64,000 nt of DNA from positions 96,001 through 160,000 of IMG/VR virus record IMGVR_UViG_3300027969_000042; one strand, 5' to 3'. This DNA comes from a virus. The position numbers were made by a program, and so were the translations under genes. Shown one piece after another: positions 36,621-59,090 of the stretch (position 1 is the stretch's first letter; every line of letters begins with the position of its first letter). The notes below the pieces were generated by a model that was not told the DNA's origin, ran no database searches, and saw only the letters and a list, made by a program, of their open reading frames with translations.

Positions 36621-38072
36621 TTAGAAGCCTCCGAAGATGTCCATCACGACCGACAACCTTTTAGTTATTTCAGGTAAACCTAATGGTTCAATAATTGAAT
36701 TGATTGGAGAAAGTATAGCTTTCGCGAACTGTTCGTCATAATCTATCTCTGGAGCGAACTCATGAGGGTATGAACCTCTCATATAAGCAAACTGATCATT
36801 CACAGTTTTATCCTTACAAACATAATACTTAATCTTTGTACCCGATTTAATAAATTCATATTTCTGTTGTGCTGCTCTATCCAAATTTAATAAGTAATTA
36901 TGATAAGCAGCTGCTTTGACTGCGAAGTGAGCACCATTTACATATCTCAAAGGTAAAACCTTATCATCAATAATTTTAGCATCATAGTTAGAACAAGAAG
37001 ACTGCATTGCAATATCATCAATATCAGCTAGCTCAAACTCTTTTCTAAGATTTTTAACTAACTTCAATAATTCTTTTATGTTGAATGTATCTGGATTAGA
37101 AAATAAGTATCTTACAATATCTACAATCTTATCTCTTGCAAATAAAGGTGTAGATGATCTTACAAGTTCAACTCCTTTAGGGAATATGTAAGTCATAGGA
37201 TCAAAGTTGATACCATCTTCATGTACAATATGCTGAATATATTTCTTTTTAGCAATATTGATAATTGATTCAGAAATCTTTTCTAACTCAAAGTCTTCTT
37301 TATTCTCTACTCCAAATGAAGCAGCATAATCTTCTAAACATTGTTTGAAATATCCACCATACCTAAAATGGTCTAAGCCTTGAATTAGTTCTAATTCACT
37401 AGTCCAATTCCATTTTATTTCTGATGTAAATACACCATCATTTATCATACCATTAAGATTTCTATCTTTAATAAAATACCCATCAAATACTAATAGGTCA
37501 TACGCATTACAAATTGTATCTTTTAATTCACTAACTGAATGAACAACGGCAACGCAGTTTGGATTATTATGTCTTACTTTTTCTTTTGAAAGAACAATAA
37601 ACTTTTTATCAATCTTATCAACTTCACTTAAAACTAAATTCTCCCAATCACAATGATCAATTGCTGGTTTAAATGATACAAATAATGAGTCAGTATCAGC
37701 ATAAATACTAACATGTTCATTTTTATCAATTTGAGTAACATTTTTTATTCCTACTTTATCGTGTACTTCAAAATCAAGATGCCATTGGTTATACCAATAA
37801 TCTTCATTTACTCTATCCATTGTTTTTGTAAGATCACGACCTTGTGCCGTTATTGTGCCTGCTACGTGATTATTATATAATATGAAGTAGGCCGTTGCGA
37901 ATGCTCCGCTAATTTCCCCCACCACATAACGTAGTGGGGGCTAAGCATAGGAGCCATTAAGCACAAGCTTCAATGCTGTCTGCATTGCGTTATAGTATTC
38001 AACATCTTTTTTTAGTTGTACTGCTTGTATCTTTAATGACTCTATTTTTAATTTTTTTTCTTCTCTTGTCAT
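36621..38072 (-). CDS. gp43: Family-B DNA polymerase, C-terminal subunit (gp43B-like), interrupted by a 39-nt insert with in-frame TAG
   Basis: ATG at 38072 gives MTREEKKLKIESL...QTALKLVLNGSY, then the insert, then GAFATAYFILYNNHVAGTITAQGR (motif B). YADTDSLF (motif C), KKKY and VKGV-like FPKGVELVRSSTP follow. The ORF track caught only the part from GTG 37925. Confidence 0.9.
37908..37946 (-). other. 39-nt hairpin insertion in PolB motif B
   Basis: GCT TAG CCCCCACTAC GTTAT GTGGTGGGGG AAATTAGC sits between the Tyr (TAT) and Gly (GGA) codons. 10-bp GC-rich stem, 5-nt loop. Confidence 0.9.
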
Positions 38073-38136: not shown

Positions 38137-39000
38137 ATGATAAAGAATGACAAAATTAAAGTAAATATTTCATATAGGAATATTACACATTATATTAAAT
38201 TAGGATATAATCCTATTTTAAATAAAGAATTAGAAATCGAAACTAATCATTTATCAACATCATCACATGTTAAGATTGATGTTATATGTAAAATATGTGG
38301 AATCGAGAATAATATTATGTATTATAAATATATTGATAATGTTGAAAGACACGGTTTCTATGGTTGTAGAAAATGCTCCAGACAAAAAGCGGCAATGACA
38401 TCATTAGAGAAATATGGAGTTGATAATTATAGTAAAACAAATGAATGGAAGGATAGAGTTGAAAAAACAAATATTGATAAATTCGGTTATAAAACAAATT
38501 TATTATCACCTGATTATAAAGAAAGTATATCAAATATATTACTTGATAAATATGGTACAAAAAATTGGTGGGAGATAAGAAATACTAATAAAAAATCAAA
38601 GTTAGTTATAATTGATAATATTATTAAAAATGTAATAATATATTCCGAAGATTTATATGATAACGGATTTATAAATGATAATTACCTTCTGTATAGAAAT
38701 GAATGTAGAAGAATAACAAATTCTAATATTAAAAATCTAATGATTGAATGGAATGGTACTGATTACTATACTAAAGAGAATATATCGAATAATTTTACTC
38801 TACCACATAATGATCCTGGGTACCCAACAATAGATCATAAAGAATCGGTTTATTTTGGATTTACTAATAATATAAGTTCCGAAGATATAGGTTCACTAGA
38901 AAATTTATGTATTACAAAAAGAGGTATAAACTCAACAAAAAGAGATTTATGTGAATTGGAGTTTTTAGAAAAGTTTTTAAATAAAAAAGAAGAACATTAG
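38137..39000 (+). CDS. Free-standing HNH-type homing endonuclease
   Basis: CKICG and GCRKCS Zn motifs; C-terminal PTIDHK...NLCITKRGINSTK. Divergent from polB; TTTAATATATA at 38122-38132. Confidence 0.7.
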   Translation: MIKNDKIKVNISYRNITHYIKLGYNPILNKELEIETNHLSTSSHVKIDVICKICGIENNIMYYKYIDNVERHGFYGCRKCSRQKAAMTSLEKYGVDNYSKTNEWKDRVEKTNIDKFGYKTNLLSPDYKESISNILLDKYGTKNWWEIRNTNKKSKLVIIDNIIKNVIIYSEDLYDNGFINDNYLLYRNECRRITNSNIKNLMIEWNGTDYYTKENISNNFTLPHNDPGYPTIDHKESVYFGFTNNISSEDIGSLENLCITKRGINSTKRDLCELEFLEKFLNKKEEH

Positions 39001-39530
39001 TTCTTCTTTTTTGGTTTTAATATCATAAGCCATTTACTAGACTCAAGTTTTGGTATATTTTCGGCAGATCCAAACTCGTCCAACATTGTGGCAAATTTTA
39101 GCATTACTAGTTGTCCTCTATCTGGATTACCTTTTTGTCTTCCTTTTAATTGAATAACACATTTTACTTTATCATTATCCAAAAGGAACTCTTTACCCTT
39201 CTTAGCTTTAATCTCTAAATCGTGATCTGAAATCTCACAAGAAAGTTTTATTTCTTTTAATTCTGATTTAATTGCATTTTTCTTTTGTTCTTTTAACATT
39301 TTCTCGATGTTATAAAGGAACTTACCATAATCTTCAATTTTGGCAATAGGTGGATCTTGATTCTCATTTATTAAAATAAGATCTTTTCCTTCTTCATCTG
39401 CAAGACGAAGTGCGTCTTTAGTTCTGATTATTTCTGGTGCTGCACCGGTAACGATTAGTCTAACTTCAAATGACTTAATGTCGTCATTTATTTTATGTTT
39501 TCTTTTATTATTTGGTTGTTTTTTATTCAA
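38997..39530 (-). CDS. infC: Translation initiation factor IF-3
   Basis: INDDI..EVRLI, DALRLADEEGKDLILI, PPIAKIEDYGKFLY, KEIKL..I..HD..K, DKVKC.I..KGR. Starts at TTG; an in-frame TAA lies 5 codons upstream. Confidence 0.92.
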   Translation of the reverse strand: MNKKQPNNKRKHKINDDIKSFEVRLIVTGAAPEIIRTKDALRLADEEGKDLILINENQDPPIAKIEDYGKFLYNIEKMLKEQKKNAIKSELKEIKLSCEISDHDLEIKAKKGKEFLLDNDKVKCVIQLKGRQKGNPDRGQLVMLKFATMLDEFGSAENIPKLESSKWLMILKPKKKN

Positions 39531-42121: not shown

Positions 42122-42203
42122 AATGATTATATCAAAGTTGATAACTTTGTTTAAACTAATTTACATTTTCATGTATAACATAAGAACATTAAAAATATCT
42201 AAA

Positions 42204-43274
42204 ATGAAATTAAACAAAAAGTTTTTAAAAGAGTACTTGAATAGTACTTCTCCAACAGGTTTTGAGTATGAATTAGGTGGACAAAAAGTTTGGATGGACA
42301 ATATTGAAAAATATGTCGATTCTGTTGAACTTGATAATTATGGTACTGCCTATGGTGTTACCGGTAATTTAGAGTCTGACTTTAAAGTTGTTATCGAAGC
42401 ACACTCTGATGAAATCAGTTGGTTTGTAAACTACATTGACTCAAAAGGATATATTAGAGTTATCAGAAATGGTGGCTCTGACGTACAAATTGCTCCTTCT
42501 ATGAGAGTAAATCTATGGGGTGAAAAGGGTGCCGTTACAGGTGTCTTTGGACATCCAGCGATACATATCTCTGATAGAAAGAAAGAGGTTGATTTAAACT
42601 CAATTTTTATCGATATTGGTGCTTCTTCAAAAGAAGATGTTGCTAAAATGGGTATTAAAGTTGGTACAGTAGTTACTTTTAAAGATGAGTTGATGAAACT
42701 TGGTAATGATTACTACTCTGGTAGAGCACTTGACAATAGAATTGGTGGTTTTATGATTGCCGAGGTTGCAAGAAAATTGAAAGAGAAAGGTAAAAAACTA
42801 CCATTTAAACTTTACATTGTTAATTCAGTTCAAGAAGAAATTGGATTACGTGGTGCTGAAATGATTGCACACACAATTAAGCCAAATGTTGCTATTATAA
42901 CTGATGTTTGTCATGAGACATCGTCACCTTGTTATACTGCAAGTAAACAAGGCGATCATATTGCTGGTGATGGAGGTGTTATTACAAGAGGTCCTGCAGT
43001 TCATAATAAATTGAGAAAATTGATTTTGGATACCGCAACGGCTAAAAAAATCCCTCACCAGTTAGCAGCTTCTTCGAGATCAACTGGAACAGATACCGAT
43101 GCATTTGCTTATGCGAATGGTGGTACTCCTTCTGCACTTATTTCTTTAGCACTCAAGTACATGCACACAACTTGTGAAACTGTTCATAAGGAAGATATTA
43201 AAAATGTTATAGAGTTGATTTACGAAACTCTTCTAAATATTGAAGAAAATCATGACTTTAAATACAACTCTTAA
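42204..43274 (+). CDS. M42-family aminopeptidase
   Basis: EAHSDEI, RALDNRIG, SVQEEIG, TDVCHE and KYMHTTCE. Likely start MKLNKK at 42204; TAACTTTG at 42142-42149. Confidence 0.92.
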   Translation: MKLNKKFLKEYLNSTSPTGFEYELGGQKVWMDNIEKYVDSVELDNYGTAYGVTGNLESDFKVVIEAHSDEISWFVNYIDSKGYIRVIRNGGSDVQIAPSMRVNLWGEKGAVTGVFGHPAIHISDRKKEVDLNSIFIDIGASSKEDVAKMGIKVGTVVTFKDELMKLGNDYYSGRALDNRIGGFMIAEVARKLKEKGKKLPFKLYIVNSVQEEIGLRGAEMIAHTIKPNVAIITDVCHETSSPCYTASKQGDHIAGDGGVITRGPAVHNKLRKLILDTATAKKIPHQLAASSRSTGTDTDAFAYANGGTPSALISLALKYMHTTCETVHKEDIKNVIELIYETLLNIEENHDFKYNS

Positions 43275-58713: not shown

Positions 58714-59090
58714 TGGAGATGACGTTGTACTGCCCAACGTGTCTTTCTCAGTTAAAAATAACTATTCGTTTACAGGTTTAGTAAGTTTTTCTAAGTCTTA
58801 CAAAATAATTAGTTTTTGAATCTCAAACTACTAATAAAAAGGTTTCACTTTTAAACTGGTGACCACAGCTGTAGAATTTTTGGTGTATTAGTCTTATTTG
58901 ATTAAGCTACTACTAAATCTCTATTAGAGATCAAATTGTTTTGTAAGCAAGCTACTAAATCTTCACTTGTTCCTACTTGATTAACGTTGCCGTTTAAAAT
59001 TGTATCAACTAATTTATTAATCGGTCATTGTAGACCACCCGATACCTGCATAATCACTCTTAGTCCGCAAATCAATTCTGAAACACCCCC
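58714..59090 (-). ncRNA. ssrA: tmRNA (one-piece, ~377 nt)
   Basis: 5' GGGGGUG pairs with 3' CAUCUCC-A, including G3.U70. T-arm ACGUUG-GGCAGUA-CAACGU. Internal tag ORF 58991-58902 GNVNQVGTSEDLVACLQNNLISNRDLVVA*. CCA is not encoded (CAA follows). Confidence 0.92.

Follow-up and report, generated by a model that had tools for sequence, protein, structure and literature searches.

The window analysed here is a 64,000-nucleotide (nt) stretch of viral DNA (positions 96,001 to 160,000 of IMG/VR record IMGVR_UViG_3300027969_000042), and it carries on its minus strand the gene for the C-terminal half of a family-B DNA polymerase (PolB). This gene was interrupted by a 39-nt coding gap, which fell precisely at the junction of the motif B codons for Tyr and Gly and split the gene into two open reading frames (ORFs; 37941..38072 and 36621..37925 on the minus strand of the ORF list). 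Read on that strand, the order was MTREEKK...LNGSY, GCT TAG CCCCCACTAC GTTAT GTGGTGGGGG AAATT AGC and GGA GCA TTC, all in one frame. A homing endonuclease gene stood beside the interrupted gene, and the comparison with relatives suggested that the gap is probably skipped by the ribosome in a programmed translational bypass. The features of the locus, in window coordinates, were as follows.

37947..38072, minus strand: exon 1 of the PolB C-terminal-half gene, codons 1–42 (MTREEKK...KLVLNGSY), with the ATG at 38072
37947-37949, minus strand: proposed take-off codon UAU (Tyr42), the last codon of exon 1, placed by homology
37908..37946, minus strand: 39-nt coding gap, made up of GCU, UAG, the hairpin, an A-rich spacer and AGC; missing in relatives L007, L001 and L002
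37941..37943, minus strand: in-frame UAG stop, codon +2 after the take-off codon, from the sequence and the ORF list
37916..37940, minus strand: upper hairpin, CCCCCACUAC / GUUAU loop / GUGGUGGGGG, 10 bp including one U·G pair
37908..37915, minus strand: 3′ part of the gap, AAAUUAGC, whose UUAGC pairs with GCU(U)AG of the gap as a lower stem
37908-37910, minus strand: proposed undecoded landing triplet AGC, the last triplet of the gap
36621..37907, minus strand: exon 2 of the PolB C-terminal-half gene, starting with GGA (GAFATAYF...) and including motif C (YADTDS); the end includes the stop codon
38137..39000, plus strand: free-standing HNH-type homing endonuclease gene, 287 amino acids (aa); Pfam DUF7487, PHROG families 12131 and 3339

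The polymerase gene matched Pfam DNA_pol_B (E = 5.6e-14) and also a PHROG DNA polymerase family. Exon 2 comprised 428 codons with no internal stop, and the joined exons read KLVLNGSY|GAF, which restored motif B (KxxxNxxYG). A PDB search with a single uninterrupted sequence (L007) gave no match and a profile was needed; with a profile of uninterrupted relatives, the interrupted segment aligned to motif B of 1s5j, herpes simplex virus (HSV) UL30 and Pol alpha, and motif C followed. The initial annotation of this locus had described a 39-nt stop-containing hairpin inside the YG of motif B and had predicted that removal of these 13 codons would restore the motif. The ORFs, the relatives and the motif B profile all agreed with the first statement, and the gapless relatives, which read LNGSYGAF, bore out the second.

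At the gap position, the gapless relatives L001, L002 and L007 read ...KLVLNGSYGAFAT..., and an uninterrupted 474-aa gene was present in LR745206 and LR756502, two uncultured huge phages of 630–640 kb, as well as in the 98%-identical IMG/VR relative L007. Since these relatives are uninterrupted, the insert in the window corresponds to exactly 39 nt between TAT and GGA, with a boundary that is ambiguous by 1 nt owing to a shared G. The identical gap was found in the independent assemblies L086, L167, L169, L171, and L173. The exact 43-aa exon 1 ORF was recovered from JGI, ENA and Logan samples, where at least 23 contigs carried it, in each case together with the endonuclease and the polymerase gene. 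The same gap was thus carried by many assemblies and is not an assembly artefact, a possibility for which the initial annotation had allowed. The ratio of nonsynonymous to synonymous substitution rates (dN/dS) of exon 2 was 0.04–0.12 between the window and its relatives, and 0.036 against L007. Among gap-bearing pairs it was 0.06–0.16, and among gapless pairs 0.11, that is, alike. These ratios indicated that the genes are under purifying selection beyond the gap. This essential polymerase gene is functional, and the insertion in its motif B is precise, widespread and maintained by selection.

The hairpin motif had one copy in the window and none was expected in shuffled sequences. In a minimum free energy scan of the 177.5-kb contig, which has a GC content of 29%, the hairpin was the second most stable 45-nt fold, ~7 standard deviations below the mean; a scan for perfect stems was blind to it, because the stem contains a U·G pair. 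The gap alone (39 nt) folded at −21.3 kcal/mol (z −4.0), and with the exon flanks GCUCC/GGAGC the fold reached −30.7 kcal/mol (z −5.0) with UAU bulged. The lower stem GCU(U)AG/UUAGC took in the UAG, and in the sub-family to which the window belongs the helix closed the gap at its first and last nucleotides. The antisense strand of the window gap folded less stably than the sense strand, because one stem pair is U·G and pairs in the sense-strand RNA only. The 10-bp GC-rich stem in an AT-rich genome that had been noted initially was therefore confirmed by folding, and so were the pairing of the GCT...AGC ends, the extension of the stem by GCTCC/GGAGC and the bulged UAU. An intrinsic terminator was ruled out, as no U-run followed the hairpin on either strand. 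A dispersed repeat or miniature inverted-repeat transposable element was also ruled out: the hairpin was single-copy in the contig, and its sequence was found only in polB relatives in IMG/VR.

A total of 139 relatives drawn from IMG/VR and metagenomes were parsed. Of these, 58 were gap-bearing, and they collapsed to 40 unique gaps, the window's being one of them. Both gapped and gapless forms were thus found among the relatives, as the initial annotation had suggested looking for, together with the covariation of the stems. The gaps were located after codon 33 (Ala), 34 (Leu), 37 (Val), 40 (Gly), 41 (Ser) or 42 (Tyr), and the start of the gap-bearing ORF (MTKEEK...) was constant in all relatives. 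Gap lengths ranged from 36 to 49 nt and fell into the three classes modulo 3 in a ratio of 10/16/14. With lengths in all three frames, the gaps cannot be translated through. A run of C began 6 nt past the codon before the gap in 30 of the 40, and 5–8 nt past it in all 40. Stem length over the 40 natural variants was 7–17 bp. In the 26 elements studied closely the stems were of 9–11 bp, with 240 Watson–Crick and 19 G·U pairs and no mismatches; the pair statistics were also taken from per-sequence folds, as the MAFFT alignment A1 misaligns some 3′ arms. In these 26 elements the inner stem pairs covaried freely, and in 24 of them the sense strand was more stable than the antisense strand. Together, the covariation and the stability of the sense strand indicated that the structure acts in the mRNA.

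The lower stem also covaried: U2-A in L012 corresponded to C2-G in the window and L170, and the arms were GCUUAA/UUAAGC in L094 and GUCUAA/UUAGAC in L008 and L020. In L008 the stem also took in the take-off codon. The gap's 3′ part was A/U-rich, AAAUUAGC in the window, and the spacers of the family were A-rich (e.g., UGAAAAUU, CAAAAAGA and UAAAUGA). The G5 arm ended 5 nt before AGC in the window and 4–10 nt before the landing triplet in most members. A 40-nt variant, GCTTAACCCCCACCACATATGTGGTGGGGGTGAAATTAGC (L170), was found in very close relatives with exon 1 98% identical to that of the window. This variant is frame-shifting and lacks an in-frame start, and it replaces the window's U·G pair with C-G. 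By parsimony, the in-frame length of the window gap is best regarded as incidental.

An in-frame stop was present at gap codon +1 in 4 of the 40 gaps and at codon +2 in 28 (32/40 together), the +1 codons being common ones (GUU, UUU, and GCU). The last gap triplet was synonymous with the codon before the gap in 28 of 40, and this was observed at all six sites, in the matched pairs GCU>GCA/GCU, CUU>CUA, GUU>GUA, UCU>UCA, GGU>GGU, and UAU>UAU/UAC. At the Tyr site, 5 of 17 gaps ended in a Tyr codon (UAU>UAU/UAC in L160, L094, L138, L139, and L165). The junction at this site is set by homology alone, and the hairpin spacing was again 6 nt, which supports the reading of the synonymous pairs as take-off and landing codons. 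Cognate triplets that could compete between the hairpin and the landing site numbered 0 against 1.8 expected, a difference that was not significant. In exon 1, Ser12 was present in 28 of 39 gap-bearing vs. 8 of 53 gapless sequences, and Gln16 in 23 of 39 vs. 11 of 53. This enrichment may be a nascent-peptide signal for bypass or mere shared ancestry of the cassette.

Some relatives showed further irregularities. The polB-C match spanned ~500 nt more in L057-L059 and L067, possibly owing to an intein, an intron or a second gap in exon 2. In L047, L054, L060, L066, and L076-L078 the match began at residue 58, and further interruptions of exon 2 are possible. Besides the gaps counted above, L057 had a stop-plus-CCCCC hairpin gap at the Leu site.

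The endonuclease gene was divergent from the polymerase gene and began 64 nt upstream of the polymerase start codon. Its product contained a C-terminal HNH-type conserved motif (PTIDHK...NLCITKR.INS.K). Searches of PDB and NCBIfam with this protein gave no useful match, and no Mob annotation was found among its listed matches. An HNH gene lay upstream in 24 of 38 unique gap loci vs. 0 of 54 gapless loci (Fisher p = 1.2e-12, uncorrected for phylogeny). There were 14 gap lineages without the HNH gene, and two of them, L061 and L094, had a GIY-YIG/NUMOD3 enzyme at this place; the gapless lineage L049 also had a GIY-YIG enzyme. In this GIY-YIG- and NUMOD3-bearing gapless lineage (L049-L051), an N-terminal HNH-like fragment was located downstream of the gene. 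The endonuclease clades roughly followed the gap site, with a short clade at Gly, Ser, and Tyr and a long clade at Ala, Leu, and Val. In the gapless L007 and L010, an upstream ORF of the size of IF3 directly abutted the polymerase gene, with no endonuclease between them. In the window, a phage translation initiation factor 3 (IF-3) gene (38997-39530, minus strand; Pfam IF3_N + IF3_C, E 1e-19 to 1e-24; PHROG 9787) was the immediate upstream neighbour of the endonuclease/polymerase cassette, with a stop codon that overlapped the endonuclease gene at its end. Among public sequences, the nearest homologue of this enzyme (L166, LR756501.1 730708-731454, 34% identity) belonged to a 735-kb huge phage. 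No polymerase gene was found near it, and the endonuclease family therefore occupies other sites too.

Exon 2 of the window was 92–99% identical to that of the gapless L007. Exon 1 was 78–83% identical to L007, vs. 87–95% to the gap-bearing L011 and L012. Between the window and L086, exon 1 plus gap were identical at 165 of 165 nt and exon 2 at 93%. L139 and L138 differed by 28% in exon 2, and their gaps were nearly identical. The mosaic breakpoints were at the gap. Exon 1 and the gap travel with the HNH gene as a cassette between polymerase backgrounds.

The exonuclease/N-terminal half of PolB was encoded by a separate 514-codon open frame at ~90.5–92.1 kb of the contig (L003, L006), ~42 kb from the C-terminal half. 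The C-terminal half started at the same MTKEEK in all 139 relatives, gapped or gapless. This indicated that the polymerase was already split in the ancestor of the clade and that the endonuclease did not cause the split. Among 134 long ORFs of the whole contig, Shine-Dalgarno-like motifs were depleted before start codons (3.7% vs. 8.6% in the background), and the start codons were preceded by A-rich leaders (72% A at −11). This leader pattern is typical of Bacteroidota hosts, and the host apparently lacks Shine-Dalgarno-led initiation. An M42 glutamyl aminopeptidase gene (42123-43274, plus strand; Pfam E 1.6e-73) was also found in the window.

We propose that these 39 nt form a gap for programmed translational bypass (ribosome hopping) within a mobile homing-endonuclease cassette, analogous to that of T4 gene 60/mobA but situated in another gene. 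We consider this reading the probable one because the features match those of the T4 gene 60/MobA element as defined by Manning and Atkins (bioRxiv 10.1101/2022.08.31.505936). The ribosome would decode codons 1–42 and would then hold peptidyl-tRNA-Tyr on UAU in its P site. The gap would refold into a two-part hairpin from the first A-site nucleotide, taking in GCU and UAG, and the refolded hairpin would hinder decoding in the A site. The tolerance of a sense codon ahead of the stop could result from a hairpin so near the P site that blocks the A site. The peptidyl-tRNA would then unpair, the mRNA would slide by 39 nt, and decoding would restart at GGA to give ...LNGSY-GAFATAYF..., with LVLNGSYGAFATAYF as the junction peptide of the hopped product. 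The gap would also interrupt motif B in the DNA, a segment that has little freedom to vary in protein and at which the neighbouring endonuclease is probably aimed. A genome carrying the gap would thereby be immune to cutting, and gapless relatives would be cut and converted; by analogy, we infer that the gap shields its carrier from its own endonuclease. A hop from GCU to GCA, or from the codon before the stop in general, was rejected, as it would give the wrong frame or the loss of Gly. The initial annotation had already regarded the GCU-to-GCA hop as wrong, and homology sets UAU as the last decoded codon and GGA as the resume codon.

Several observations weigh against this proposal. The landing triplet of the window, AGC, does not pair with tRNA-Tyr and would offer at most a U·G and a third-position match; its closest variants end in AAC, with two of three positions matched, and 12 of the 17 Tyr-site gaps have no true Tyr landing codon. 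In the window sub-family, the helix and not the anticodon may determine the landing site, and the gap-closing helix of this sub-family would equally suit an RNA-processing enzyme. Unlike in gene 60, the stop in most members does not follow the take-off codon at once but comes after a common sense codon, which is GCU in the window and UUU or GUU in other members. The association tests ignore phylogeny. A landing aid of the T4 type, a mini-Shine-Dalgarno sequence (GAG, GGG, GGA or AGG) 5–7 nt 5′ of the landing codon, may not apply here, as the phage genes are without Shine-Dalgarno motifs.

The alternative that survived best was a mini-intron, in which the gap is excised from the mRNA at UAU|G...C|GGA and the ends are sealed, so that ribosomes read a continuous message. 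Excision could proceed by a protein endonuclease and an RNA ligase, of the phage or of the host, or by self-cleaving chemistry. Such a process would tolerate any gap length or frame, the covarying helix closes the gap of the window sub-family at both ends and can be extended by the exons, and the mismatch of the window landing triplet to tRNA-Tyr would be of no consequence. The contig also encodes an Rnl2-type protein of the RNA ligase family (PF09414; 53534-53992, minus strand, L081). However, excision leaves unexplained the synonymous end triplets in 28 of the 40 gaps, their phase 0 position, and the in-frame stop at +1 or +2. No conserved junction nucleotides were seen, the distance from the hairpin to the 3′ junction varied (4–10 nt, up to 14), and a single-stranded tail contained this junction in L008, L020, and L094. 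The size of 36–49 nt is far below that of a group I or II ribozyme core, and introns of this size are not known from bacteria or phages. For a bulge-helix-bulge the folds had one bulge (UAU) and no symmetric 3-nt bulges around a 4-bp helix. The Rfam search gave a chance-level match alone (16.6 vs. 40 bits), and no RtcB was encoded on the contig. Thus, a mini-intron appeared unlikely.

That the cassette has inactivated the gene was considered next. AGC would then reflect decay, and the phage would either be defective or use a different polymerase. In favour of this, take-off and landing codons match less well in the window than in any other member of the family, and the contig is ~74% complete and could lack a further polymerase gene. 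Against this, no second C-terminal PolB half was found on the 177.5-kb contig, exon 2 was intact with the low dN/dS given above, and the AGC cassette occurred in at least two gap variants, in backgrounds 7–13% apart and in many samples, all intact. The pseudogene that the initial annotation had considered therefore does not apply, and a dead or dying copy is very improbable.

Read-through of the UAG, by a suppressor or by leaky termination, would place 13 extra residues between Tyr and Gly, in a product with ...SYA-X-PPLRYVVGEISGAF... A gap of 39 nt is a multiple of 3 and has a single stop, as this would require. However, 30 of the 40 gaps are frame-shifting, including the 40-nt variant in the relatives with a nearly identical exon 1, the gap evolves as an RNA structure and not as codons, and the extra residues would separate the invariant Tyr and Gly of motif B. 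In this phage TAG serves as a normal stop: 12 long ORFs ended in it and had a back-up stop close by, and the coding density under genetic code 11 was 89%, which led us to reject a recoded TAG. No tRNA genes were found on the contig; in the window, ARAGORN detected no tRNA or tmRNA (including 58714-59090) and Rfam gave nothing at gathering thresholds. We therefore regard read-through as extremely unlikely. Equally little can be said for termination at the UAG followed by a new start at the GUG (37925) that lies in frame within the 3′ arm of the window hairpin, by which a 43-aa peptide and a 434-aa chain beginning MVGEISGAF would reassemble: the polymerase is already split once, but an in-frame start was present in only 7 of 26 gaps (always within the stem), many gaps have a stop right before the resume codon, the 40-nt gap of the close relatives has no such start, and the chain split would fall in motif B.

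Of the four routes listed in the initial annotation, bypass, which we favour, and precise RNA excision were kept. Read-through, with 30 of 40 gap lengths not multiples of 3, and re-initiation at the stem GUG were rejected as general mechanisms. The description of the element as a candidate bypass or mini-intron was supported by the family comparison.

If the bypass reading is correct, hopping would be a recurring solution when a homing endonuclease must break a target that is invariant in protein, and a second bypass family would lie in a different essential gene and in an apparently Shine-Dalgarno-less host. The 40 natural variants would be a ready mutagenesis series for the essential features of bypass, which spans six take-off codons, matched and unmatched landing triplets, stops at +1, at +2 or absent, and the whole range of stem lengths. 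The window sub-family suggests that landing could be guided by RNA structure and not by codon pairing. If the mini-intron were true instead, it would be without precedent among bacterial viruses. In either case, gene callers report a 43-aa ORF and a truncated one in place of the polymerase, and such genes are therefore mis-annotated in metagenomic phage catalogues.

The closest known system is T4 gene 60. To our knowledge, it is the only case in phages or bacteria in which the bypass of tens of nt has been proven at the bench, and Bonocora and co-workers reportedly placed its 50-nt bypass within a MobA homing-endonuclease element in 2011. Like gene 60, the polB family has a gap of tens of nt in a conserved stretch of an essential replication gene, 33–46 codons into a fragment of a split gene, with a stop at the gap start, a covarying 5′ stem-loop and a 3′ part rich in A and U. 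A take-off and a landing codon that one tRNA could read, a match that is the signature of gene 60 (Manning and Atkins, bioRxiv 10.1101/2022.08.31.505936), were present in the 28 of 40 polB gaps with synonymous end triplets and not in the window (UAU vs. AGC). The refolded structure of the window sub-family would, as in T4, have the first A-site nucleotide as its start. An HNH homing endonuclease is linked to each of the two families; in each, some lineages keep the gap after loss of the nuclease, and others have a GIY-YIG enzyme in its place. The MobA gap protects its carrier from its own endonuclease (Manning and Atkins, bioRxiv 10.1101/2022.08.31.505936).

The two families also differed. Elements of the gene 60 type, whose MobA bears NTE/CTE tails, were found exclusively in a topoisomerase large-subunit gene (Manning and Atkins, bioRxiv 10.1101/2022.08.31.505936), whereas the polB family is located in PolB motif B. 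The polB gaps, of 36–49 nt, occupy six positions instead of one (plus or minus 1 codon). Their stem is C5/G5-clamped and usually begins 6 nt after the take-off codon, whereas the T4 stem includes the take-off codon, and their stop is usually the second codon (GCU UAG in the window) and not the first as in T4. The polB endonuclease gene is divergent and lies in the intergenic spacer of an already split gene, and so did not cause the split. The host of the polB phage is apparently without Shine-Dalgarno-led initiation. The polB gaps are analogous to the T4 cassette, with no sequence homology to it shown. No Rfam family matched the gap, and no account of a bypass gap in a phage polymerase was found in the full-text literature.

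Outside phages, Lang and co-workers reportedly described the byp elements of 27–55 nt in mitochondria of Magnusiomyces capitatus (PNAS, 2014). These are likewise short, mobile, GC-rich hairpin inserts in the coding sequences of an AT-rich genome; their take-off and landing codons match, and take-off is followed by a stop codon or one that cannot be read. Unlike the byps, which are spread over many yeast mitochondrial genes, the polB gaps are restricted to ~10 codons of one phage gene, tied to an endonuclease, and single-copy per genome. Split gp43 polymerases (43A/43B) in some T4-related phages were reportedly described by Petrov, Karam and co-workers, and in these, too, a family-B polymerase is encoded by two genes and split in the fingers shortly before motif B. 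Here, in contrast, the halves are ~42 kb apart, and the split is common to 139 of 139 relatives, gapped or not.

Stem-loops near the mRNA entry can occlude or dock in the A site and hinder tRNA binding (Bao et al., bioRxiv 10.1101/2020.02.05.936120). These frameshift-stimulating stem-loops resemble the polB element in having a stable hairpin a short, constant number of nucleotides 3′ of the P-site codon; theirs cause a −1 shift on a slippery heptamer, whereas the polB gap has no slippery site and 36–49 nt would be skipped. As judged from the sequences compared here, the polB family would be a second, apparently independent phage cassette that combines bypass with homing.

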